A DNA stretch of 64,000 nucleotides from Chitinophagaceae bacterium (GCA_051004255.1 JBPCKN010000012.1:23119-87118), one strand, 5' to 3'. Numbered from the stretch's first letter, positions 51,905 through 63,795 are shown. A program made the numbers and translations. The notes: generated from the letters alone by a model not told the origin.

Positions 51905-53584
51905 ATGGCAGACAATGTTTTTGATGCGATTGTAATAGGCAGCGGTATCAGCGGCGGCTGGGCTGCAAAAGAACTTTGCGAAAAAGGTTTAAAAACAATT
52001 ATGCTCGAACGCGGGCGCAACATTGAGCACATAAAAGATTATGTAAACGCAAATAAAGAAGCGTGGGATTATCCGCATCGCGGCACGCGAACACAACAAA
52101 TGATAAAAGATTATCCTGTGCTGAAACGCGATTATCCTTTAAACGAAACTAATTTGGATTATTGGGTAAAAGATAAAGAATGCCCTTACACAGAAATAAA
52201 ACGCTTCGATTGGTTTCGCGGTTATCATGTTGGCGGACGCTCGCTAATGTGGGGCAGACAAAGCTATCGCTGGAATGATATGTATTTTGAAGAAAATGCA
52301 AAAGACGGAATTGCGATTGACTGGCCTGTGCGCTACAAAGAGATTGAGCCTTGGTATGATTATGTTGAAAAATTTATTGGCGTAAGCGGCAATAAAGATG
52401 GAATTCCGCAATTGCCCGATGGTCAATTTATGCCACCGATGGATATGACCTGTGTTGAAAAAGATGTTGCTGCGCGAATTAAAGATCATTATAAAGGAAC
52501 GCGTGCAATGGTTATCGGTCGTACGGCAAATATTACCGAACCTTTGCCGGGGAGAACTAATTGCCAGTTCAGAAATAAATGTTGGCTGGGATGCCCGTTT
52601 GGCGCATATTTCAGCACACAATCATCAACGTTGCCTGCCGCAATGAAAACAAATAATTTAACGCTTCGTCCGTGGGCAATCGTTACAAAAATTTTGTACG
52701 ATAAAGATAAAAAGCGCGCGACCGGTGTAGAGATTTTAGATGCAGAAACAAATAAAACATATCAATATTTTTCAAAAATTATTTTCTTAAATGCATCAAC
52801 ATTAAACAGTGCATGGGTTTTAATGAACTCCGCAACTGATGTGTGGCCCGATGGTTTAGGAAGCAGCAGCGGTGAGCTTGGTCATAACATTATGGATCAT
52901 CATTTAAATGTTAGCGCGGGCGGAATTGTGGAAGGTTATGAAGATAAATATTATTATGGTCGTCGTGCAAATGGCGTTTACATTCCGCGCTACAGAAATT
53001 TCTTTGGTGATAAAAGAGATTATCTGCGCGGCTTTGGTTACCAGGGCGGCGGCAGCCGCGCAGGCTGGAGCCGCGATGTTGCTGAATACAATATTGGTGC
53101 AGATTTAAAAGATGCATTAACCGAGCCGGGTCCATGGACAATGGGCATGGGTGGCTTTGGAGAAACCTTGCCTTATCATGAAAATAAAGTAACACTTGAC
53201 AAAACTAAAACGGATAAATGGGGATTAAACATTTTAGCGTTTGATGTTGAGTTAAAAGAAAACGAATTGAAAATGCGCAAAGATATGCTTGCTGATGCAA
53301 TCGAAATGCTCGAAGCAGCCGGCGTAAAAAACGTAAAAGGCAGCGATACGAATCCATATTTGGGTCGTGGTATTCATGAAATGGGTTCAGCACGCATGGG
53401 CGCAAATGCAAAAAAATCTGTGCTTAATAAATGGAATCAAGTTTGGGATGCACCAAATGTTTTTGTAACCGATGGTTCGTTTATGGTTTCAGCAGCTTGC
53501 CAAAATCCTTCGCTTACTTACATGGCGTTTACTGCGCGTGCAGCAGATTTTGCTGTGAAGGAAATGAAGAAGATGAATATTTAA
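51905..53584 (+). CDS. GMC-family FAD oxidoreductase (paralog 1)
   Basis: FAD fold DAIVIGSGISGGWAAKEL and a C-terminal HEMGSARMG active-site region. Confidence 0.85.
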   Translation: MADNVFDAIVIGSGISGGWAAKELCEKGLKTIMLERGRNIEHIKDYVNANKEAWDYPHRGTRTQQMIKDYPVLKRDYPLNETNLDYWVKDKECPYTEIKRFDWFRGYHVGGRSLMWGRQSYRWNDMYFEENAKDGIAIDWPVRYKEIEPWYDYVEKFIGVSGNKDGIPQLPDGQFMPPMDMTCVEKDVAARIKDHYKGTRAMVIGRTANITEPLPGRTNCQFRNKCWLGCPFGAYFSTQSSTLPAAMKTNNLTLRPWAIVTKILYDKDKKRATGVEILDAETNKTYQYFSKIIFLNASTLNSAWVLMNSATDVWPDGLGSSSGELGHNIMDHHLNVSAGGIVEGYEDKYYYGRRANGVYIPRYRNFFGDKRDYLRGFGYQGGGSRAGWSRDVAEYNIGADLKDALTEPGPWTMGMGGFGETLPYHENKVTLDKTKTDKWGLNILAFDVELKENELKMRKDMLADAIEMLEAAGVKNVKGSDTNPYLGRGIHEMGSARMGANAKKSVLNKWNQVWDAPNVFVTDGSFMVSAACQNPSLTYMAFTARAADFAVKEMKKMNI

Positions 53585-53656
53585 AAATAAGAATTCAAAA
53601 GTGAAAAGTAAAATTAAGGTTTTTAAATTTTGATTTTTTACTTTTTAATTTAAAAT

Positions 53657-55390
53657 ATGCCCGGCGATACAACCAGCATAAACATCAATTCCGGCGGCGT
53701 TGAAAAAAATACGTTCGATGCAATTGTTATTGGCAGCGGTATTAGCGGCGGTTGGGCTGCAAAAGAACTTTGCGAGAAAGGATTAAAAACTTTGGTGCTC
53801 GAGCGTGGAAGAAATGTGGTGCATAACAAAGACTATCCCACTGCAATGCTTGCTCCGTGGGAGTTTCCGCATCGCGGAGAAATGACAAGAAAATTTGTTG
53901 ATGAAAATCCTTTAATAACGCAAGCCGCAGGTTTCGACGAATCAACTGCACATTTTTTTATTCGCGATAAAGATCATCCTTACATTCAGGAAAAACCTTT
54001 TGAGTGGATTCGCGGTTACCAGGTTGGCGGCAAATCAATTATTTGGGGCAGAGCCTGTCCGCGCTGGAGCAATTATGAATTTATAAATCCCGCGCGTTAT
54101 GGTTATGGAATTGAGTGGCCAATAAATTATGAAGATATTGCGCCTTGGTATTCGCACGTGGAAATTTTTTCGGGAATTTGCGGCAACAAAGATGGTCTTG
54201 AAGCAATGCCCGACGGCGAATACCTTCCGCCGTTTGAATTTAACTGTGTTGAAAAAGATCTAAAGAAAAAAATAGCCGATAATTATAAAGACCGGTTTAT
54301 GATTCAGGGTCGCTGGGCGCAATTAACACAACCAAAACAAATTCATTTACAACAAGGCCGTGCACAGTGCCAGGCACGCGACCTTTGCATGCGCGGATGC
54401 CCGTGGGGCGCGTATTTCAGCTCTGTTTCATCCACATTACCTTGGGCTGCAAAAACAGGAAATTTAACGGTGCGTCCTTTTTCCGTTGTGCATTCAATTA
54501 TCTATGATGAAAAAAAAGATAAAGCAATTGGTGTAAGAATAATTGATACGAACACAAAAAAATCAACCGATTATTTTTCCAAAATTATTTTTGTAAATGC
54601 ATCTGCATTAAACAGCAATCTTGTTTTGCTGAATTCCACTTCTAATCGCTTTCCAAACGGTTTTGGAAATGATAACGGATTGCTTGGCAAATATGTTTGT
54701 TTTCAAAATTATCGCGGCTCTGTTCACGGCACAATTGACGGCTTTGAAGATACATATTATTACGGTCGCAGACCTTCAGAATGTATGATGGCAAATTTCA
54801 GAAACTTCAAAAAGCAAGACACCGATTTTGTTGGCGGATACATGGCGTTTATGGGTTGTTATCGCAATCGTGGTGCAGGCGATAAATTAGATGTGCAAAT
54901 TGGTGCAGATTATAAAGAAGCGATGAGCGAAGCCGGCGGCTGGGAAGTTTACATGTACATGCAAGGTGAAACAATACCGAAAGAAACGAACCATGTAAGT
55001 TTAAGCAAAATAGAAAAAGATCAGTGGGGAATTCCGTTGCTTGTTACAACAGTTGGTTACGATGATAATGATGAAAAATTATTGAATGATTTTCTAACGC
55101 AGGGCGAAGAAATGTTTGATAAATGCGGCATAAAAAATATTACACATAACGATAATCATTGGGCGCCGGGAAGGGATATTCACGAAATGGGCGGATGCAG
55201 AATGGGCAAAGACCCTAAAACTTCTTTGCTCAATAAATGGAATCAATTTCATAACTGCAAAAATGTTTTTGTAACCGATGGCGCCTGCATGACGAGCACT
55301 GCAAACCAAAGTCCTTCTATTTTTTATATGGCATTAACTGCAAGAGCTTGTAATTATGCGGTGGATGAATTGAAGAAAGGGAATATTTGA
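53657..55390 (+). CDS. GMC-family FAD oxidoreductase (paralog 2)
   Basis: The N-terminal block FDAIVIGSGISGGWAAKELCEKGLKT is identical to paralog 1. HEMGGCRMG is present. Confidence 0.85.
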   Translation: MPGDTTSININSGGVEKNTFDAIVIGSGISGGWAAKELCEKGLKTLVLERGRNVVHNKDYPTAMLAPWEFPHRGEMTRKFVDENPLITQAAGFDESTAHFFIRDKDHPYIQEKPFEWIRGYQVGGKSIIWGRACPRWSNYEFINPARYGYGIEWPINYEDIAPWYSHVEIFSGICGNKDGLEAMPDGEYLPPFEFNCVEKDLKKKIADNYKDRFMIQGRWAQLTQPKQIHLQQGRAQCQARDLCMRGCPWGAYFSSVSSTLPWAAKTGNLTVRPFSVVHSIIYDEKKDKAIGVRIIDTNTKKSTDYFSKIIFVNASALNSNLVLLNSTSNRFPNGFGNDNGLLGKYVCFQNYRGSVHGTIDGFEDTYYYGRRPSECMMANFRNFKKQDTDFVGGYMAFMGCYRNRGAGDKLDVQIGADYKEAMSEAGGWEVYMYMQGETIPKETNHVSLSKIEKDQWGIPLLVTTVGYDDNDEKLLNDFLTQGEEMFDKCGIKNITHNDNHWAPGRDIHEMGGCRMGKDPKTSLLNKWNQFHNCKNVFVTDGACMTSTANQSPSIFYMALTARACNYAVDELKKGNI

Positions 55391-55650
55391 TGTGATGATT
55401 TGGTGATGGGAATGATGTGCTATTTTTTCGGAATAATAATAAACATAATCCTTATTGGATTGTGTCTTGAATCTGATCTCATAAGGGAACCTTGTGCATT
55501 ATTCATTATTGTTGTTTCAGTTTTTGCGATATAATCTTTCCTGTGCAATACGCCAACGTTTCAATATTTGGCGATATGAAATTGTCAAAAAAACAAATTG
55601 AACAAACTCCATCACAAAAGTGATTATTTACTGCATTTCTACATGAATAA

Positions 55651-55698
55651 ATTTTAATCTGCACTTCATCTGCTACTTATTTCATCAGTACAATTTTG
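55651..55698 (+). promoter_or_regulatory. Conserved upstream block ATTTTAATCTGCACTTCATC, then 20 nt, then CAATTTTG (site 1)
   Basis: 18 of 20 nt are identical to 56221-56240, with identical spacing to a CAATTTTG box resembling the Bacteroidota -7 element TAnnTTTG. It lies 72 nt upstream of the ATG at 55770. Confidence 0.5.
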
Positions 55699-55769: not shown

Positions 55770-56216
55770 ATGCCTAAGCATCATGAAAAAAAACCACATC
55801 AAAAAGCAGTGGGTTTACAGTTAATTGGTAAATCTGATGAACTGATTAACTTATTAATTACTGAGCCTGAAAAAAGAGAGTGGGCTATTGAGCAGGTAAC
55901 CAATGAAGGTCCTGAGCACAAACAAGTATTTAGCGCCTTGCTTTTAAATCGAATGTTCAAGCTTGTTCAATTAATCGAAGAAAAAACAAATGTTTCTTTC
56001 GCAGCACAAAAAGGAAATGAAATTATTTCGAAAAAAAATGAGGATGAATTCATCATTCCACTGCAGCTGCTGGCAACTGCTCTTAAAAAAGAACAAACAG
56101 AAGACGTTTTAAAAATTTTATCTCATGCGCCGGAACATGAGTTGATTGCTTTTACTGCTTTGCTACAAGCAACAGAATGGAGTATTAAAGCAATAGAAAA
56201 AGAAAATAAAATATAA
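55770..56216 (+). CDS. Hypothetical cytoplasmic protein with a His/Lys-rich N-terminus
   Basis: 148 aa from the ATG at 55770 (MPKHHEKKPHQK...). No family recognised. Confidence 0.5.
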   Translation: MPKHHEKKPHQKAVGLQLIGKSDELINLLITEPEKREWAIEQVTNEGPEHKQVFSALLLNRMFKLVQLIEEKTNVSFAAQKGNEIISKKNEDEFIIPLQLLATALKKEQTEDVLKILSHAPEHELIAFTALLQATEWSIKAIEKENKI

Positions 56217-56220
56217 ATAC

Positions 56221-56268
56221 ATTTTAATCTGCATTTCATGCCATCCTTGTTTGCAAATTTCAATTTTG
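56221..56268 (+). promoter_or_regulatory. Conserved upstream block ATTTTAATCTGCATTTCATG, then 20 nt, then CAATTTTG (site 2)
   Basis: Same block and spacing as site 1. It lies 37 nt upstream of the ATG at 56305. Confidence 0.5.
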
Positions 56269-56304: not shown

Positions 56305-57009
56305 ATGAAAAAGTTATTTATGGCAGTTTTAATAACAGCCGCAACAATCGCAACAGTTAATGCACAACCACCTGCGCTGGGCGCTCCGCCGTCACCAAGA
56401 CCAGATGCTCGGGGTATTCGACCGCCTCATCCACCCCGCGGCGAACAATTACAACCGGTAAGTCAATTTCAGGGAAGAGTTGTTAAGATTAGTGTAAACG
56501 ATGATTATGTTTACGATGGTTTTTACATGCTTACCGGAAGTGATAGTGTACTGGTAAAATTTCCGCCGCATCTTGGTTCACAAATTACTTCATCAATAAA
56601 AAATGGTTCAAGCGTTACTGTGAACGGTGTGATGAATTATTCACCATTTGGCGAAAAGGAAATAAAAATGGTTAGCATAAATGCAAACGGCCAAACAATT
56701 TATGATGCGCCGCCCGCTGCAACACCCATTGCAGTTTCTGAAAAATTTATTAATGGAAGCGGAACAATCAGCAATACACAAACTGACCGCGAAGGCAGAA
56801 TAAATGGTTTTATTTTGAATGATAACGCCATTTTGCGCATCCCTCCTGACGTTATTTACCAATTATCAGTCACGGCTAAAACCGGCGCTACCATTGACTA
56901 TACAGGCACGTTAAAACAATTGCAGACCGGCGAAGTGGCTGCAGGTAATTACAAAATTGTGCATTGCAACACAATTAAAATTAACGGGCAGCAATATCTT
57001 GTAAGATAA
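56305..57009 (+). CDS. Secreted protein with a Pro-rich linker and two copies of an uncharacterised domain carrying an FPPH/IPPD motif
   Basis: Signal peptide MKKLFMAVLITAATIATVNAQ and linker PPALGAPPSPRPDARGIRPPHPPRG. The internal repeats are centred on LVKFPPHLGSQI and LRIPPDVIYQL. Confidence 0.6.
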   Translation: MKKLFMAVLITAATIATVNAQPPALGAPPSPRPDARGIRPPHPPRGEQLQPVSQFQGRVVKISVNDDYVYDGFYMLTGSDSVLVKFPPHLGSQITSSIKNGSSVTVNGVMNYSPFGEKEIKMVSINANGQTIYDAPPAATPIAVSEKFINGSGTISNTQTDREGRINGFILNDNAILRIPPDVIYQLSVTAKTGATIDYTGTLKQLQTGEVAAGNYKIVHCNTIKINGQQYLVR

Positions 57010-57015
57010 TTTTTT

Positions 57016-57054
57016 AAAAGAGGTAAGGCAAGATGCTTTACCTCTTTTTATTTT
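57016..57054 (+). terminator. Strong rho-independent terminator after the 56305 gene
   Basis: AAAAGAGGTAA / TTACCTCTTTT: a perfect 11-bp stem with an 11-nt loop, followed by TATTTT. Confidence 0.8.
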
Positions 57055-57071
57055 CGACCAAAAATTTAATT

Positions 57072-57434
57072 ATGAAATCGCTATCTACAATTGGGCTACT
57101 TTTTTTATCCAACACATTTATGACGTTTGCCTGGTACGGACATTTAAAATACTTCGGAAAAGGCACCACCACTTCTTTGTTTTTAATTATTCTTATTAGC
57201 TGGGGTATTGCTTTTTTTGAATACTGTTTTCAGGTGCCTGCAAACAGAATTGGTTTTGCAGAAGAAGGCGGTCCGTTTTCGCTTGTGCAATTAAAAGTGA
57301 TTCAGGAAGTAATTACGCTTATTGTTTTTGTTATTTTCTCTGTGGTGATTTTCAAAAATGTTCGCTTTACAACTAATCATTTTATCGGCTTTGGCTTTTT
57401 GGTGGCTGCGGTTTATTTCATATTTAAATCATAA
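57072..57434 (+). CDS. DMT-superfamily small membrane protein (DUF486-like)
   Basis: 120 aa from the ATG at 57072, with 4 TM segments and the FMTFAWYGHLKY N-terminal pattern. The longer ORF-track start would lie inside the terminator hairpin. Confidence 0.65.
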   Translation: MKSLSTIGLLFLSNTFMTFAWYGHLKYFGKGTTTSLFLIILISWGIAFFEYCFQVPANRIGFAEEGGPFSLVQLKVIQEVITLIVFVIFSVVIFKNVRFTTNHFIGFGFLVAAVYFIFKS

Positions 57435-57460
57435 CGAAAAATTTTTAAACCTGTTGCAAA

Positions 57461-58732
57461 ATGAACAAAACGCAATCTATTCAATTCAAAAAACATAAGG
57501 TTATTTGGCCGCTCGAGTCACTAAACTTTTTCATGGCCGATATGCAGGCAGGAATTGGGCCTTTTTTGGGAATATTTCTTTTGGCACATGGCTGGAAAAG
57601 TGGACCCATCGGTTCTGTAATGACCATCGGCGGCGTTGCCGGAATGTTAATGACAGCACCTGCAGGTGCATTAATTGATGCAACAACGCGTAAACGCATG
57701 TATGTTGTTATATCAGGAATATTTACGGTTATTGCTTCAGCGTTTATACTTCTCTCACAAAATTTTTGGATAGTAAGTATATCGCAAGTGGCAACAGCTA
57801 TTGCAGGCTCTGCGTTAGGACCGGCTGTAATAGGAATAACGCTTGGTATTGTTAAACAGGCTGGCTTTAATCGTCAAAATGGTCATAATCAGGCGTTCAA
57901 TCATGCAGGCAATGTCGCCGGCGCAGCGCTATCAGGTTATTTAGGTATGAAATTCGGGATGCCCGCCATTTTTTATCTCGCCGCAGTTTTTGGTGTGTTA
58001 TCCATCATATCTATTTTAATGATTCCTGGCAAAGCAATAGATAACAAAGCAGCACGTGGTTTAAAAGAAAATGGAGAAGATAATAAAGCAAGCGGTCTTC
58101 AAGTGTTATTCAAATGTAAGCCACTGCTAATATTGGCTGCGGCTCTTGCTTGTTTCCATTTAGGAAACGGTGCTATGTTGCCGTTATATGGTTTAGCCGC
58201 TGCTTCAAAGAATCAAGGAAATCCCACTGTTTTTGTAGCCATGACAATAGTTATTGCACAAGTGGTTATGATTTTTGCATCCATCATTGCTATGCGCATG
58301 GCTGAAAAAAGCGGGTACTGGCTTGTATTGTTTATTTCATTTATAGCACTTCCTATACGCGGTTTTATTGCAGCCCACATGATTAATCAAACAGGTGTTT
58401 ACCCCGTTCAAATACTGGATGGTATAGGTGCCGGATTGCAAAGTGTTGCCGTTCCAGGATTGGTTACGCGTATTTTAAATGGTACCGGACGGGTTAATAT
58501 TGGTCAGGGCGCTGTGATGACGGTGCAAGGGCTTGGAGCATCGTTGAGCCCTGCTATTGGTGGATGGATTGCGCAAGGCATTGGCTATCGTTTAACCTTT
58601 ATGATTTTGGGCAGCTTTGCAATCATTTCAATTTTATTATGGCTGATATTTTCTTCTACTATTAGGTCCGCCTCCGATAATACGCGGGCAAATAATAATA
58701 GTAAAAATGGAGATAAAAAAGTTAAGAAGTGA
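57461..58732 (+). CDS. MFS transporter
   Basis: About 12 TM segments, 423 aa, with the loop motif DATTRKR between TM2 and TM3. Confidence 0.8.
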   Translation: MNKTQSIQFKKHKVIWPLESLNFFMADMQAGIGPFLGIFLLAHGWKSGPIGSVMTIGGVAGMLMTAPAGALIDATTRKRMYVVISGIFTVIASAFILLSQNFWIVSISQVATAIAGSALGPAVIGITLGIVKQAGFNRQNGHNQAFNHAGNVAGAALSGYLGMKFGMPAIFYLAAVFGVLSIISILMIPGKAIDNKAARGLKENGEDNKASGLQVLFKCKPLLILAAALACFHLGNGAMLPLYGLAAASKNQGNPTVFVAMTIVIAQVVMIFASIIAMRMAEKSGYWLVLFISFIALPIRGFIAAHMINQTGVYPVQILDGIGAGLQSVAVPGLVTRILNGTGRVNIGQGAVMTVQGLGASLSPAIGGWIAQGIGYRLTFMILGSFAIISILLWLIFSSTIRSASDNTRANNNSKNGDKKVKK

Positions 58733-58872
58733 ATAATCACAAAAAATAAAAGCTATCAAAAAATCAAAGAAATTTATTTATACTTTAATGAATGCAGGAG
58801 TCGCTTTAATTACTTTTATTAAAAACACCGATACATAAAAATGTTTTATGAAGATTTATAAAAACGATTTTT

Positions 58873-59655
58873 ATGAAATTATCTCAGCAAACTACAATAA
58901 AAATTATCTTGATTGCTTTGTCCATCTTAATTCTATTGTATATTTCAGAACCAGTTATGTTTAATATTCCTCCGCATAGTAAAAATCTTCTTTGGATAGT
59001 TTTTATTATCTCCGGATTATTATTACTGCTTACCTACATCAATCCGAAAAAACCTCCTGCCCCGCCTTTGCTGCCGCACAATACTTTACCGCAACCTTCA
59101 GGCGAAATAAGCGGAACTGTTGTAGAATATGGCAGCAACGCTATTGGTGATATTGATAAGATTTTATTGCAGCAAAGCAATCAAAAAATATGGTTACATT
59201 TTCCACCGCACACTGCGCAACAGGTCATGAATATAGCTATAAAAAATACTACTATATACGCAACTATTGATAATGGCAAAAAGCCGCCGCATGATAACAG
59301 TATAATGTATGAATTAATTTCATTGCGGTCAGATGCATTGGGTAAAATAATTAATGTGCATGATATTCCGCCGCCTCCGCCAATGCAAGGAAATGAAGTG
59401 GAAGTAAAAGGAAATAACATTCAATTAAAATTAGACGACAAGGGAAACGCTGCAGCATTTATTCTATCAGGAAAGTTAATTGAGTTTCATCCGCATACAG
59501 CAGAAACGTTATTGCCTTTGATGAAACAGGCACATGAAATTATTGTACGCGGTTACGAACGCAGCCCATCTGATGGTTTTGTAAATAATACCGGATTGCC
59601 TTTTATAAAACCTTCTGTTATTACGATTGATAATATTAATTATGTGATACAATAA
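58873..59655 (+). CDS. Membrane-anchored paralog of the 56305 protein (two TM helices, Pro-rich linker, two FPPH/FHPH domains)
   Basis: TM helices IKIILIALSILILLYI and LLWIVFIISGLLLLLTYI, then linker PKKPPAPPLLPHNTLPQP. The repeats are centred on WLHFPPHTAQQV and LIEFHPHTAETL. Confidence 0.6.
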   Translation: MKLSQQTTIKIILIALSILILLYISEPVMFNIPPHSKNLLWIVFIISGLLLLLTYINPKKPPAPPLLPHNTLPQPSGEISGTVVEYGSNAIGDIDKILLQQSNQKIWLHFPPHTAQQVMNIAIKNTTIYATIDNGKKPPHDNSIMYELISLRSDALGKIINVHDIPPPPPMQGNEVEVKGNNIQLKLDDKGNAAAFILSGKLIEFHPHTAETLLPLMKQAHEIIVRGYERSPSDGFVNNTGLPFIKPSVITIDNINYVIQ

Positions 59656-59660
59656 ACAAA

Positions 59661-60344
59661 ATGAAAATACTGATCGCAGAAGATGAAGAAAAACTTGCAG
59701 CTTTTATACAAAAAGGATTGCAGCAGGCAGGGCATGTAGTGCAGCAATGCAATAATGGTTCGCAGGCTTTGGAAAAAGCTGCATCAGAAAATTTTGATTT
59801 GATATTGCTCGATTTGATGATGCCCGGCGCCAATGGTTTTGAAGTGCTGAAAAATCTTCGTGCCTTTAAAATTCAAACACCGGTGATTATTGTAAGCGCT
59901 TTGAGCGATACGCAGCAAGTAGTGCAGGGGCTTGACCTTGGCGCAGTTGATTATATAAAAAAACCTTTTGAATGGGAGGAATTGCTGGCACGCATAAGAA
60001 TTCTGCAGCGAAAATTATTTTCATCAGAAAGTACAAAAATTTGTATTGATGATTTGATAATTGATTTAATGAGTCGCAAAGTGGTAAGAGGAGAAAAAGA
60101 AATAAACCTTACCTCAAAAGAATTTGTGTTGCTCGAATATCTTGCCCGCAATGCAAACCGCGTGATAAGTAAAAATCAAATACTGGAAAATGTATGGGAA
60201 ATGGATTTTGATCCCGAAAGCAATATTGTAGAAGTGTATATGTATCAATTGCGAAAAAAAATTGATAAAGGCTTTGATAAAAATTTAATAGAAACCATTG
60301 TTGGTGCTGGTTATAAGCTGAAAGGAAATAAATCATCACTTTGA
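59661..60344 (+). CDS. OmpR/PhoB-family response regulator
   Basis: Receiver domain (DLILLDLMMPG) and a C-terminal winged-helix DNA-binding domain (LTSKEFVLLEYL...VGAGYKL). Confidence 0.9.
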   Translation: MKILIAEDEEKLAAFIQKGLQQAGHVVQQCNNGSQALEKAASENFDLILLDLMMPGANGFEVLKNLRAFKIQTPVIIVSALSDTQQVVQGLDLGAVDYIKKPFEWEELLARIRILQRKLFSSESTKICIDDLIIDLMSRKVVRGEKEINLTSKEFVLLEYLARNANRVISKNQILENVWEMDFDPESNIVEVYMYQLRKKIDKGFDKNLIETIVGAGYKLKGNKSSL

Positions 60345-61669
60345 AAAAAAGATTTTCATATCCTTTTTACCATAGCCTTCGCTTTCGGTTCGGGTTAATT
60401 TTCGGCTTATTATTTTTATTCTTTTTATTGGGGATTGTTTTTTTTCTTTATTCAAACGTAAAATATCAACTTGAAAAAAGTTTTGCAGACAGATTAAAAA
60501 GCCAGGCAAACATTGTTTTACAAAAGACGGAGATAAGCCCGTTAACCATTCCATTGCCGCAGGAAAAAGAATATTTTTTACTCACTTATAATAACGGCAA
60601 GCAATCAGACACGCTGTTTAACAATCTGCCTTTATCTGCAAAATTATTATCTGCACAAAACCCGCGAGTGCAGTTGTGGCGCGCTTTATACGTTTCACGG
60701 ATATTAGAAACGGGCGGCATAATAAATATATGGTATGCCTTGTCTGCAAATGAATTAAATAAAAATCTTGAACAACTTCGGTTGGTATTATTTATTTATA
60801 TTCCATTGTCGCTTTTTATTTCTTTTATTGCAGGATATTTTTTATCGGGATTTTTATTACAACCTATTCATCACATCATCAGCAAAGCAAACGATACAAG
60901 CTTGCAAAATGAAATACAACTTTTAAAGGAGCCCAAAACAAAAGATGAACTGCATCATTTATCTGTTGCATTAAACCGTATGCTGGAAAGAATACAAAAA
61001 CAATCGCAGCAGCAAAATGCTTTTTTTGCATCAGCATCACACGAATTGCGAACACCGTTAAGCGTGATGCTCACTGAATTGCAGGTGTTGCAAATGAGTA
61101 ATACGTCACTCGAAATAAAATCAATTTTGCAAAATCAAATAGCAGCGGTTCAACGATTAAATAAATTAGTGAATGATTTTTTACTGATGAGCCAATTAAA
61201 ATCGGGCACGCTGATGTTGCAAAAAGAAAATGTAAATATTGTTGAGTTGGTAACAGACAGCTCAGAAAGATTAATGAATAAAATGCAGCAACAATTTCTT
61301 TCTTTAAAAATAAATCTGCTGCCGGTGGATGGCAATTTTGATGTATGGGCTGATGCAGCGCTGCTACAAATAATTATTTTTAATCTTATGGAAAATGCAG
61401 CAAAGTATGCAAAGGCGCAAACACTTATTGAAATTACTATTAAGCAAATTGACAAAAATATTTTATTCAATATATCTAATACAACTGATAAAGAAATTAT
61501 CAATATTGAAAAACTTACGGATGAATTCAAAAGAGAAGATGATTACAAGGAAGGTTTTGGTTTAGGTTTATGGATAGTGAAGCAGCTAATTGTTTTACAT
61601 GATGCAAAATTTAATTTGTTATATATCAACAGAACTTTTATGGCGGAGTGGATAATGAAAAAGAAATAA
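60341..61669 (+). CDS. Sensor histidine kinase
   Basis: Two TM helices flank a ~120-aa periplasmic loop. H-box SHELRTPL, N-box NLMENAAKY, and G-box GFGLGLWIV are present. It overlaps the regulator gene by 4 nt. Confidence 0.88.
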   Translation: MKKRFSYPFYHSLRFRFGLIFGLLFLFFLLGIVFFLYSNVKYQLEKSFADRLKSQANIVLQKTEISPLTIPLPQEKEYFLLTYNNGKQSDTLFNNLPLSAKLLSAQNPRVQLWRALYVSRILETGGIINIWYALSANELNKNLEQLRLVLFIYIPLSLFISFIAGYFLSGFLLQPIHHIISKANDTSLQNEIQLLKEPKTKDELHHLSVALNRMLERIQKQSQQQNAFFASASHELRTPLSVMLTELQVLQMSNTSLEIKSILQNQIAAVQRLNKLVNDFLLMSQLKSGTLMLQKENVNIVELVTDSSERLMNKMQQQFLSLKINLLPVDGNFDVWADAALLQIIIFNLMENAAKYAKAQTLIEITIKQIDKNILFNISNTTDKEIINIEKLTDEFKREDDYKEGFGLGLWIVKQLIVLHDAKFNLLYINRTFMAEWIMKKK

Positions 61670-62736
61670 GGTAACTACACAGTAAAAGGGCGAATCTTTT
61701 TATTAAGTTTTTTAAAATGTAATAAAGTAATTCCTCTACAATTACAGATGTATCACCATTATAATAAGTAAGGTGGCAATAATTTGCAAGTGCAGTCAAG
61801 TATTCTGATCGCTATGTTCAATTATTTACTCTTGCTTTTAAGGACTTGGTATTAGCGAGAAAAGCAGGAACAATGTCAAATCAATAATACAAAATAATAG
61901 AAGCCATTGTTATTTTTCTTTAGAGAAATATGTATTTTAAATTACTTTGTCCGTATACGCGTACCAAAGCTTTTATTTTTTTTAATAAAAGCTCCCTTTC
62001 ATTATTCATGAATTTGAAATATCCTGCCTCGTGCTCTTATACGTTGTAAAGACATTAATGATAAAGATGATACACCGTTAGGTAATACAAAAATCGATAT
62101 TGAGAATCATAAGGTCATTTAATAATCTACTCTTGACTGGCTATCCGCAATGAGTTTCAGAATGAGAGCGCCTGCAATAAAAACGGCTATAACAGAAAAG
62201 GCAGGCAGATTTTTTTTGTTCAATGATTTCTTTTTCATACGCTTTTCATTTTAATAAACAGAATAAAAAATATCGGAAAAAATTTTATTTTTTTATAAAA
62301 TTAATATTTTATTGATAATTTTTTAATTATGAATTTTTTTATTCCCTTTTTTATTATTTCATTCAAGGTAATTGAAAAGGAATTACTCACTTCATATCAG
62401 AAATCGTTCTAAAATTTTAATAAATATGTGCAAAAAAAAAATATTTTAAAAAGAATCCTTTATTTAAAAAATGCAGTACCTTACAATATATTTTCTAACG
62501 ATAATCAATATTTTTTGTTCACTGGTAACTCAACATTAATAGCGAATATGTATGTTGAGTTTTGATACTCGAAACGTAAATATTTTTTCTCTGATTTGTG
62601 TGAAATTAATGATGAACTTGCCTAAACGTTTCCACTTCAATTGGTAAAAAGATGGTTAGTAAGGATGTAGCAAATTGTTGAAAAGTTGATTTTCGCTAAT
62701 CGCTCAAACATTTATTCATCACATAAAATTAAACCC

Positions 62737-63795
62737 ATGGCTACAAAATCAGTAACTGGTACAAACTCCGTAAACGATATTCATATCATTTGGCTAACAT
62801 CCGGACTGAGTTGCGATGGTGATTCAGTTGCAATGACTGGGGCAGTTAATCCCAGCCTGGAAGATATTGCATTAGGGGCATTGCCCGGCATGCCCAACGT
62901 TCATATTCATAGCCCGGTGATATCTTATGAAAACGGAGATGAACTTATGCAATGGTGGTATAAAGCGGAAAGAGGAGAACTTGACCCCTTTGTTTTAATA
63001 TTGGAAGGTTCGGTACCCAATGAGGAAGCCATTAAACACACCGGCGGGTATTGGGCTGCTATGGGTACTACTGGCCCCTTTGGTGATCCTATTACTACTA
63101 ATGAATGGATTGACCGGCTTTCAAAAAAAGCAGCCGCAGTTGTGGCCCTGGGCACTTGCGCCACTTATGGAGGGATACCCGCAATGAAAAATAATCCAAC
63201 TGGTGCTATGGGTCTTCCTGATTACTTAGGATGGAATTGGAAGTCGAAGGCAGGCTTACCCATCGTTTGTATTCCCGGATGTCCTGCCCAGCCGGATAAT
63301 ACAACAGAAACACTTTTATATCTTGTTTTCCAATTAGCCGGTAAAGCACCTATGATTCCTTTAGATGATGCATTGCGTCCTAAATGGTTGTTCGATCGCA
63401 CTGCTCATGAAAATTGTGACAGGGGTGCCTTCTACGAACAAGGTGATTTCGGACAAGAATATGGCACACATAAATGTCTTGTACAAATAGGATGTAATGG
63501 GCCTATAGTGTATTGCAATGTCCCCAGGCGTGGTTGGCAAAATGGAATCGGAGGATGCCCTAATATTGGAGGTATTTGTATGGCCTGTACTATGCCTGGA
63601 TTCCCTGATAAATTCATGCCTTTTATGGATGAGGCTATTGGCGCAAGATTTTCTTCTAATTCAGCAAAATTTATATCAGGCCCTATCTTGAGAGTCTTTC
63701 GCAGAATGACTGCTAATAAGAAAGATAAAGAACCTGCATGGAGGAAACCCGGTAAGAAGATCACAAGTGGCTATCAGCCTGCATGGGAAAATTAA
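62737..63795 (+). CDS. [NiFe]-hydrogenase small subunit without a Tat signal, with a Cys-to-Asp variant in the proximal-cluster motif
   Basis: Fe-S ligand pattern: GLSCDGD (instead of CxxC), GTCATYGG, PGCPAQP, HENCDRG, CLVQIGCNGP, C...GGCPNIGGICMAC. No RRxF twin-arginine leader. The ATG at 62737 is preferred. Confidence 0.85.
   Translation: MATKSVTGTNSVNDIHIIWLTSGLSCDGDSVAMTGAVNPSLEDIALGALPGMPNVHIHSPVISYENGDELMQWWYKAERGELDPFVLILEGSVPNEEAIKHTGGYWAAMGTTGPFGDPITTNEWIDRLSKKAAAVVALGTCATYGGIPAMKNNPTGAMGLPDYLGWNWKSKAGLPIVCIPGCPAQPDNTTETLLYLVFQLAGKAPMIPLDDALRPKWLFDRTAHENCDRGAFYEQGDFGQEYGTHKCLVQIGCNGPIVYCNVPRRGWQNGIGGCPNIGGICMACTMPGFPDKFMPFMDEAIGARFSSNSAKFISGPILRVFRRMTANKKDKEPAWRKPGKKITSGYQPAWEN

Follow-up and report, generated by a model that had tools for sequence, protein, structure and literature searches.

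A 64,000-nucleotide (nt) stretch of DNA from a Chitinophagaceae bacterium (GCA_051004255.1, JBPCKN010000012.1:23119-87118), referred to at its full length as the window, encodes two paralogous envelope proteins, a secreted one (protein A) and a membrane-anchored one (protein B), each of which carries two copies of an OB-fold domain. By sequence the domain forms a new family, whereas its fold is that of the well-known OB superfamily. The two genes belong to a co-directional cluster consisting of a gene for a small protein of 159 amino acids (aa), A, a DMT_6 transporter gene, an MFS transporter gene, B, and the genes for a response regulator and a sensor histidine kinase. By analogy with YgiW-QseBC, A and B would be the dedicated periplasmic partner and output of this sensor system, a reading that, taken together with the mechanism set out below, we regard as evenly poised between right and wrong.

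Proteins A and B are tandem OB-fold paralogs

The initial annotation, made from the sequence of the window without database searches, described A and B as paralogs built from a duplicated domain, with A secreted, B anchored by two transmembrane (TM) helices and, in both, a Pro-rich linker followed by two repeats bearing a Pro-Pro-His (PPH)-type motif. This layout held in every part, and all four motifs that it quoted were found. The elements of the two proteins are listed below; all coordinates are positions in the window, and all features listed here and further on lie on the + strand.

56305..57009, +: protein A (234 aa), the secreted paralog with two OB folds in tandem; cleavable signal at aa 1-20, linker rich in Pro at aa 21-49, OB1 aa 50-136 (56452-56712), OB2 aa 146-234 (56740-57006)
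56560..56571, +: FPPH of A OB1, aa 86-89, where β3 passes into the helix
56839..56850, +: IPPD of A OB2, aa 179-182; the family consensus at this site is IPPH
58873..59655, +: protein B, 260 aa, membrane-anchored tandem OB-fold paralog; TM1 aa 5-25 (58885-58947), TM2 aa 34-56 (58972-59040), IPPH loop 58966-58977, OB1 aa 76-162 (59098-59358), poly-Pro linker, OB2 aa 173-260 (59389-59652)
59200..59211, +: FPPH of B OB1, aa 110-113, invariant in 21 homologs
59485..59496, +: FHPH of B OB2, aa 205-208; the site is variable among homologs

Protein A starts with MKKLFMAVLITAATIATVNA|QPP, a typical cleavable signal as read from the sequence (…TVNA|QPP), and its linker, ...APPSPRPDARGIRPPHPPRG, precedes the two repeats. 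In B, the linker PKKPPAPPLLPHNTLPQP separates the repeats from two N-terminal helices, which AlphaFold2 (AF2) modelled as long helices at aa 5-25 and 34-56. Direct comparison of A with B by BLASTP gave a weak match (E 3e-4 over 52 residues). A word-indexed database search retrieved 67 homologs of A and 22 of B, and the family profiles built from 47 and 21 of these, respectively, aligned end to end in hhalign (99.5% probability, E 2.7e-22, 220 columns). The repeats, about 88 aa long and 2 per protein, are likewise homologous to one another: repeat-level profiles aligned with probabilities of 98% for A repeat 1 with A repeat 2 (E 1e-13), 97% for the first repeats of A and B, 98% for their second repeats and 96% for A repeat 1 with B repeat 2, whereas the two repeats of B reached 53% when aligned directly. 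From the alignments at both levels, it follows that the domain was duplicated first and the whole gene thereafter.

Homologs of B possess either a single N-terminal anchor or a lipoprotein-like signal, and given the existence of these single-TM and lipoprotein-type forms, the ectodomain of B is probably periplasmic. An alternative start of B at Met29, which would leave a single TM segment, was rejected, as the first TM segment is kept in homologs down to about 35% identity.

A new sequence family within the OB-fold superfamily

The AF2 models of A and B were confident (pLDDT 87.7 and 84.0), and secondary structure assignment with DSSP recovered the element order β1-β2-β3-helix-β4-β5 twice in each protein; the motif sits exactly where β3 ends and the helix begins. 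Foldseek searches against the PDB returned OB-fold proteins as all top matches, including the tandem-OB SSB of Thermus and Deinococcus, the anticodon domains of Lys- and Asp-tRNA synthetases, RPA, Teb1, RecO and ExoVII; the best matches had E-values of 6e-5 to 7e-4 at sequence identities of 9-21%. Profiles of the A and B families matched nothing in the PDB by sequence. The OB-fold resemblance suspected in the initial annotation is thus borne out at the level of the fold by topology and structural matches. Its further statement that the domain is unrecognised stands insofar as no curated family model fits but fails for the fold, which is that of a well-known superfamily.

Neither A nor B matched any Pfam or NCBIfam model at its cut-off, and scans extended to the homologs left the domain unclaimed by curated families. 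The generic OB model PF01336 (tRNA_anti-codon OB, cut-off 27 bits) scored 17.3 bits on A and did not match B; among the 47 A homologs, 10 gave weak matches, one of which (P0062) exceeded the cut-off at 30.8 bits. The BOF model (PF04076, cut-off 25.8 bits) matched neither A nor B at E ≤ 1 and nothing in the whole genome at E ≤ 10. UniRef labels 3 homologs (P0062, P0063 and P0050) as "DUF5666 domain-containing," but PF18914 (DUF5666) matched none of the 3 at E ≤ 10 and nothing in the genome of the window. The best score of PF18914.6, 22.1 bits against a cut-off of 27, came from a Caballeronia homolog (21.6-22.1 bits, in the β4 "GDxVxVxG" region), so that the link to DUF5666 comprises the shared label and this sub-threshold match. 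DUF5666 is itself uncharacterised, and the papers retrieved for it name it only in passing. Other homologs carry public names such as "hypothetical protein" or "secreted protein."

The family is large. A full HMMER scan of 1.84 billion cluster representatives retrieved 1,406 clusters, defined at 50% identity, at E ≤ 1e-3; 644 of them passed E ≤ 1e-10. Distant members display the unit G.V....P.GE.DG..L.DGT.VHFPPH......V..GD.V.V.G in 2 to 3 copies joined by Pro-rich linkers, and some end in a C-terminal coiled coil. The family was found in Bacteroidota, Burkholderiaceae, Planctomycetota and Myxococcota, and its spread is patchy: all 40 of the genome's closest relatives lack it, only 6 of 401 sampled genomes of the phylum have it, and the genome of the window has no copies other than A and B.

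Linkage to two-component systems

Gene neighbourhoods were compared across 64 species-level loci, with neighbours scored by phmmer and hmmsearch. Co-occurrence with two-component systems, which the initial annotation had raised as a question, proved very strong: in 38 of the 42 Bacteroidota loci with enough downstream DNA, an OmpR-type regulator and a kinase lie just downstream of A in the same direction, against a background of one regulator match in 206 kb of flanks outside the module. A B-family gene is present in 19 of these loci, always immediately 5' of the regulator and often overlapping it; the 226-aa neighbour in Chryseobacterium is one such member (99.9%). In other phyla, a regulator adjoins the family gene in 10 of 15 loci. 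Around this core, the gene order varies as follows.

Window and Dyadobacter: A-DMT_6-MFS-B-regulator-kinase
Chryseobacterium: A-B-regulator-kinase
Spirosoma: A-regulator-kinase-DMT_6-MFS
Metagenomic contigs L007 and L008: A-(ArsB-like permease)-B-regulator-kinase
Bacteroidales: OMP (outer membrane protein)-A-regulator-kinase
Caballeronia (Burkholderiaceae; locus L060): NtrC/sigma-54 regulator, two OB proteins, MFS
Schlesneria (locus L062): A-regulator-kinase-MFS, with a regulator of the OmpR type

In the window, the regulator gene starts 5 nt past B and overlaps the kinase gene by 4 nt, and B is translationally coupled to both. The remaining features of the cluster, with domains of the two transporters, regulator and kinase assigned by Pfam, are as follows.

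55643..55698, +: promoter of the 159-aa gene; box ATGAATAAATTTTAATCTGCACTTCAT...CTTA, then the -7 element CAATTTTG; matrix score 20.4, the highest in the genome
55770..56216 (open reading frame (ORF) from 55737), +: small 159-aa protein without a signal peptide, its N-terminus rich in His and Lys; translation probably starts at M12 of the 55737 ORF
56213..56268, +: promoter of gene A; box ATTTTAATCTGCATTTCAT, with the -7 element CAATTTTG 20 nt downstream; matrix score 12.0, rank 4
57016..57054, +: hairpin resembling a terminator (15-bp stem, T-rich tail), directly 3' of gene A
57072..57434, +: DMT_6 (DUF486) small membrane transporter (PF04342, E 1e-42)
57461..58732, +: MFS transporter (PF07690) of the "NFFMAD" subfamily
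59661..60344, +: OmpR-family response regulator
60341..61669, +: sensor histidine kinase with 2 TM segments, a periplasmic domain of about 118 aa, HAMP, HisKA and HATPase

To place the regulator and kinase in subfamilies, loci from three phyla were scored, and all scores were below the cut-offs. The heavy-metal regulator model TIGR01387 (cut-off 279.2) was the best regulator family at all 3 loci, with 228.8 bits in the window and up to 262.4 in Schlesneria, and the heavy-metal kinase model TIGR01386 (cut-off 292.55) was a close second to PorY in the window (136.4 bits) and the best kinase family elsewhere.

The domain also occurs on a different type of sensor. The family member P0223 is a BlaR1-type M56 protease with the tandem PPH-OB module at its C-terminus, and its gene adjoins that of a Penicillinase_R (BlaI-type) repressor. 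In BlaR1-type proteins, the C-terminal region is the sensor domain on the outside of the cell.

The 159-aa protein matched no family in Pfam and NCBIfam scans; it has an apparent internal duplication (…GPEHKQVFSALL… and …APEHELIAFTALL…), and in some related loci of the Chitinophagaceae type, homologs of it are encoded at the same position or nearby. In Bacteroidales-type loci (L024:5245 and L006:5350-5967), an OMP β-barrel gene stands directly 5' of A. The module is preceded in the window by two tandem GMC-oxidoreductase-like ORFs (51905-55390) and followed by a [NiFe]-hydrogenase small-subunit-like ORF (62686-63795); since the flanks of related modules differ between loci, these are probably unrelated neighbours.

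A conserved promoter box upstream of A

The regions 5' of the 159-aa gene and of A share a 20-nt block. Alignment of the upstream regions of A homologs on the Bacteroidota -7 element yielded a conserved promoter of 56 nt, ATGAAGAAAAATTAATTTC…TTCAT……CCTTA…(11-12 nt)…TAnnTTTG. The strict form of this pattern was found within 200 nt upstream of the A homolog in 31 of 46 Bacteroidota loci, and within 220 nt in one more, compared with 6 matches in 503 kb of other sequence, both strands counted. It occurs in Niabella, Dyadobacter, Chryseobacterium, Spirosoma, Larkinella, Fibrella and Mucilaginibacter, and several of the remaining loci have clear variants of the box, such as CTTCAT-N5-CTTCAT. The box comprises 4 half-sites (TKAA/TTAA/TTCA/CTTA) spaced by 10-11 bp and runs into the -33 region; tandem half-sites at such spacing are the geometry expected for binding of OmpR/PhoB-type regulators. 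Judged from sequence, the box is probably the binding site of the regulator encoded in the module.

When the 3.3-Mb genome was scanned with a position weight matrix, the promoter of the 159-aa gene ranked first and that of A fourth, and the second and third matches had no correctly spaced -7 box. A regulon extending beyond the module was rejected for the same reason, other matrix matches of similar score being without a properly spaced -7 box, and CTGCAyTTC was rejected as a regulatory word, as it is not conserved in related loci. The B-regulator-kinase genes are preceded by a separate spacer of 140 nt that has no box. At the Bacteroidales-type locus L024, about 730 nt separate the conserved box from A downstream of it. 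This puts the box where the OMP gene would begin and suggests that the operon there would start at the OMP gene.

Given the hairpin directly after gene A, A may be largely monocistronic. The hairpin also overlaps the first ATG (57033) of the DMT_6 ORF, so that the start of DMT_6 is probably at about 57072.

This arrangement bears on the possibility that A and B are general envelope-stress protectants in the manner of the BOF proteins YgiW/VisP and YdeI/OmdA, binding peptidoglycan, lipopolysaccharide or porins and induced by the sensor without any part in sensing. A promoter and a terminator of its own are what a strongly induced output gene would have, mature A is basic (median isoelectric point about 9), which would suit an anionic envelope ligand, and the fold class is held in common with BOF, as periplasmic location and OmpR-type control probably are. 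Against this, B is coupled to translation of the regulator and kinase instead of standing behind the inducible promoter, the fusion with a BlaR1-type sensor argues for a part in signal input, and the BOF model is silent throughout this genome. On balance, we consider a purely protective role unlikely.

The Pro-Pro-His motif and possible metal binding

Conservation of the motif among homologs is high. In repeat 1, F86, P87 and H89 are invariant in the 47 A homologs, and F110, P111, P112 and H113 are invariant in the 21 B homologs. Repeat 2 is looser, with the consensus IPPH in A, where the protein of the window has IPPD, and a variable site in B. A single-domain hidden Markov model iterated over 234 family proteins delineated 470 domain copies, two in 217 of the proteins and three in 9, in which the 3 positions of the motif are conserved as Pro in 86%, Pro in 77% and His in 74%. 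First domains mostly have FPPH, and later ones (F/I/V/M/L)PPH. Other conserved positions in the 470 copies are several glycines and, in β2, a D-G pair. A fifth motif, IPPH, lies outside the OB domains of B, at aa 32 in the loop between the TM helices (58966-58977); this loop is conserved as (D/N)IPPHI(K/R), and single-TM homologs retain only …HIK… there.

The initial annotation took the recurrent Pro-His dipeptides of A and B, and of the His-rich N-terminus of the 159-aa protein, as a hint of metal binding. The dipeptides are indeed enriched in B (5 versus 0.86 expected, p = 0.0004) and in A (2 versus 0.25, p = 0.02), but not in the 159-aa protein (p = 0.22), and the link to the latter lacks statistical support. 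Metal binding by A and B is possible, although the suggestion itself went unsupported: each domain has a single conserved His, conserved Met and Cys are lacking, and Asp takes the place of His in A repeat 2.

In its fuller form, this alternative would make A and B periplasmic metal or metalloid binders of a resistance determinant, acting as a buffer or chaperone like CusF, ZraP or SilE, with His and Asp/Asn ligating the ion, the sensor detecting it and the transporters exporting it. It draws on the dipeptide enrichment; on the regulators and kinases from three phyla, for which TIGR01387 and TIGR01386 were the leading models; on transporters that resemble efflux families, including the ArsB-like permease of some modules; and on the location of both conserved blocks on loops that border the usual OB ligand face. 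In addition, Asp or Glu occupies the β2 Asp position (Asp18) in 63% of domains with His33 versus 28% of those without (Fisher p = 2e-11), a statistic that ignores phylogeny and domain position. This co-occurrence, the subfamily scores and the transporters are circumstantial hints and weak ones. However, the heavy-metal scores are under their cut-offs (229 versus 279 bits and 136 versus 293 bits), no Met, Cys or Trp column is conserved in the A, B or single-domain alignments, and the second motif of B is variable. Furthermore, no CusF-type or other metal-protein Pfam family matched A or B at E ≤ 1, and no RND, CDF or P-type ATPase gene was seen in the modules examined. We hold a metal-resistance role, like the protective one, to be improbable.

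Transporters and probable exchange of module parts

DMT_6 is present in 16 of 42 Bacteroidota modules. The MFS subfamily, recognisable by its N-terminal NFFMAD…GIGPFLG, is found in modules of Bacteroidota, Burkholderiaceae and Planctomycetota and in 12 of 15 non-Bacteroidota loci; in other modules, the ArsB-like permease stands in for it. In many modules, DMT_6 and MFS are adjoining or overlapping genes irrespective of their place in the cluster (for example, at loci L022, L025 and L037), which suggests that the two transporters work together. No literature on the function of DUF486 (DMT_6) was found, the keyword matches being to DUF4861 and DUF4867 papers only. The MFS protein of the window is 57% identical to the copy in the Caballeronia/Paraburkholderia module versus 34% to the copy in the nearest Bacteroidota module, and these sequence identities suggest exchange of a module part across phyla, by transfer or replacement.

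Such constancy of the MFS subfamily across three phyla could also mean that A and B work in the periplasm to capture substrate for the MFS transporter, with or without DMT_6, or as its adaptors, in an uptake or export system for a specific small molecule that the sensor would regulate and no more; the NtrC-type activator at the Burkholderiaceae locus belongs to a class often tied to nutrient uptake and would fit. However, the Chryseobacterium (A-B-regulator-kinase) and Bacteroidales (OMP-A-regulator-kinase) modules have no transporter, and elsewhere an ArsB-like permease replaces the MFS protein. No MFS transporter known to us works with an OB-fold binding protein in the periplasm, which also counts against an adaptor function, and this is the explanation to which we give least credence.

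A proposed signalling and efflux module

We infer that the cluster as a whole forms a single unit for signalling and efflux, complete in itself and mobile by horizontal transfer. If A and B are the partner and output of its sensor system, B would be co-produced with the regulator and kinase and tethered to the inner membrane. Its OB domains would face the periplasm, and there, beside the periplasmic domain of the kinase, B would serve as a ligand-binding co-sensor. The phosphorylated regulator would bind the 4 helically phased TTnA-type half-sites that replace the -33 region and induce soluble A together with the 159-aa protein, and DMT_6 and MFS would follow by read-through. Protein A would then bind the same periplasmic ligand, or the kinase, and thereby buffer the stimulus or feed back on signalling, whereas the transporters would export the compound. 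In OB folds, the canonical ligand face is bordered by the loops that bear the conserved Asp and PPH blocks in this family, and the putative ligand-binding face would be this one, flanked by loop L12 (the N-D-D...D-G block) and by the PPH-bearing loop between β3 and the helix.

Several points weigh against this partner-and-output reading. Four of the 42 Bacteroidota loci lack an adjacent regulator; some modules have no B (Spirosoma, Bacteroidales) and some no transporter (Chryseobacterium), so that the core can do without B and without a transporter. The topology of B in its two-TM form is ambiguous, since Lys residues come after TM2 and the positive-inside rule does not decide the orientation. 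The PPH motif may have no more than a structural role, such as capping the N-terminus of the helix, and the assignment of the box to the regulator draws on co-inheritance and half-site geometry only.

A broader version of the co-sensor idea is more tentative, and we think it rather less probable than not, though better placed than any of the three alternatives weighed above. According to this version, the tandem PPH-OB unit would be a widespread extracytoplasmic sensory input module mounted on at least three chassis, namely OmpR-type two-component systems (as separate tethered or soluble proteins), the NtrC/sigma-54 systems of Burkholderiaceae and the BlaR1-type fusion. Periplasmic ligands of a single class would be recognised at a face made up of the Asp-Gly and Pro-Pro-His loops, and the unit would move from phylum to phylum together with an MFS exporter dedicated to it.

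Comparison with known systems

The system is of a known kind, whereas its sequence family and its tandem, tethered-plus-soluble architecture are new. The closest parallel is with the BOF proteins (YgiW/VisP, YdeI/OmdA), which are likewise secreted and of OB fold; their genes adjoin an OmpR-type system or are under its control, and their biochemical role is poorly defined. In Aggregatibacter, QseB regulates its own operon, ygiW-qseBC, through sites in the promoter (PMC4660874), and in Vibrio cholerae the kinase VC1639 is needed for polymyxin-induced expression of the BOF gene vca0732 (PMC5636140); what fits here, from sequence and gene order, are the signal peptide of A, the linkage in 38 of 42 loci and the conserved promoter box. 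A and B differ from BOF proteins in failing to match PF04076, in having two OB domains where BOF has one of about 100 aa, and in their Pro-rich linkers and PPH motif. The module differs in its membrane-anchored paralog coupled to the kinase genes and its co-inherited MFS and DMT_6 genes.

The tandem OB arrangement of A and B resembles that of Thermus and Deinococcus SSB. Unlike nucleic-acid-binding OB folds (PF01336, SSB, RPA, Teb1), however, A and B are exported or membrane-anchored and encoded among signalling and efflux genes, and because the proteins are exported, a role in nucleic-acid binding is unlikely.

In CpxP-CpxAR, ZraP-ZraSR and CusF-CusRS-CusCBA, too, a small periplasmic protein is encoded with and induced by a sensor system and provides feedback or handles the stimulus beside efflux. 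CpxP and ZraP are helical, unlike A and B, and CusF is a small OB-like barrel; A and B lack its Met/His/Trp site, and their modules show none of the metal-pump genes. The regulator and kinase of the window are nevertheless closest to the CusRS/CzcRS lineage, yet under the model cut-offs. As for BlaR1/MecR1 with BlaI, P0223 carries the module where BlaR1-type proteins have their sensor domain, whereas the module of the window is a separate protein and its signalling partner a histidine kinase.

Periplasmic OB-fold proteins encoded beside two-component systems, such as YgiW/VisP, are a long-standing puzzle, as they affect stress resistance and virulence while their biochemistry is unclear. The A/B family provides a second case, unrelated in sequence and far more modular, that extends over 1,406 clusters in several phyla. 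The motif, the paralog pair, the regulator box, the transporter and the BlaR1-type fusion supply specific residues, promoters and partners to test. A new family model would be justified and would give a meaningful annotation to thousands of proteins now listed as "hypothetical" or "secreted."

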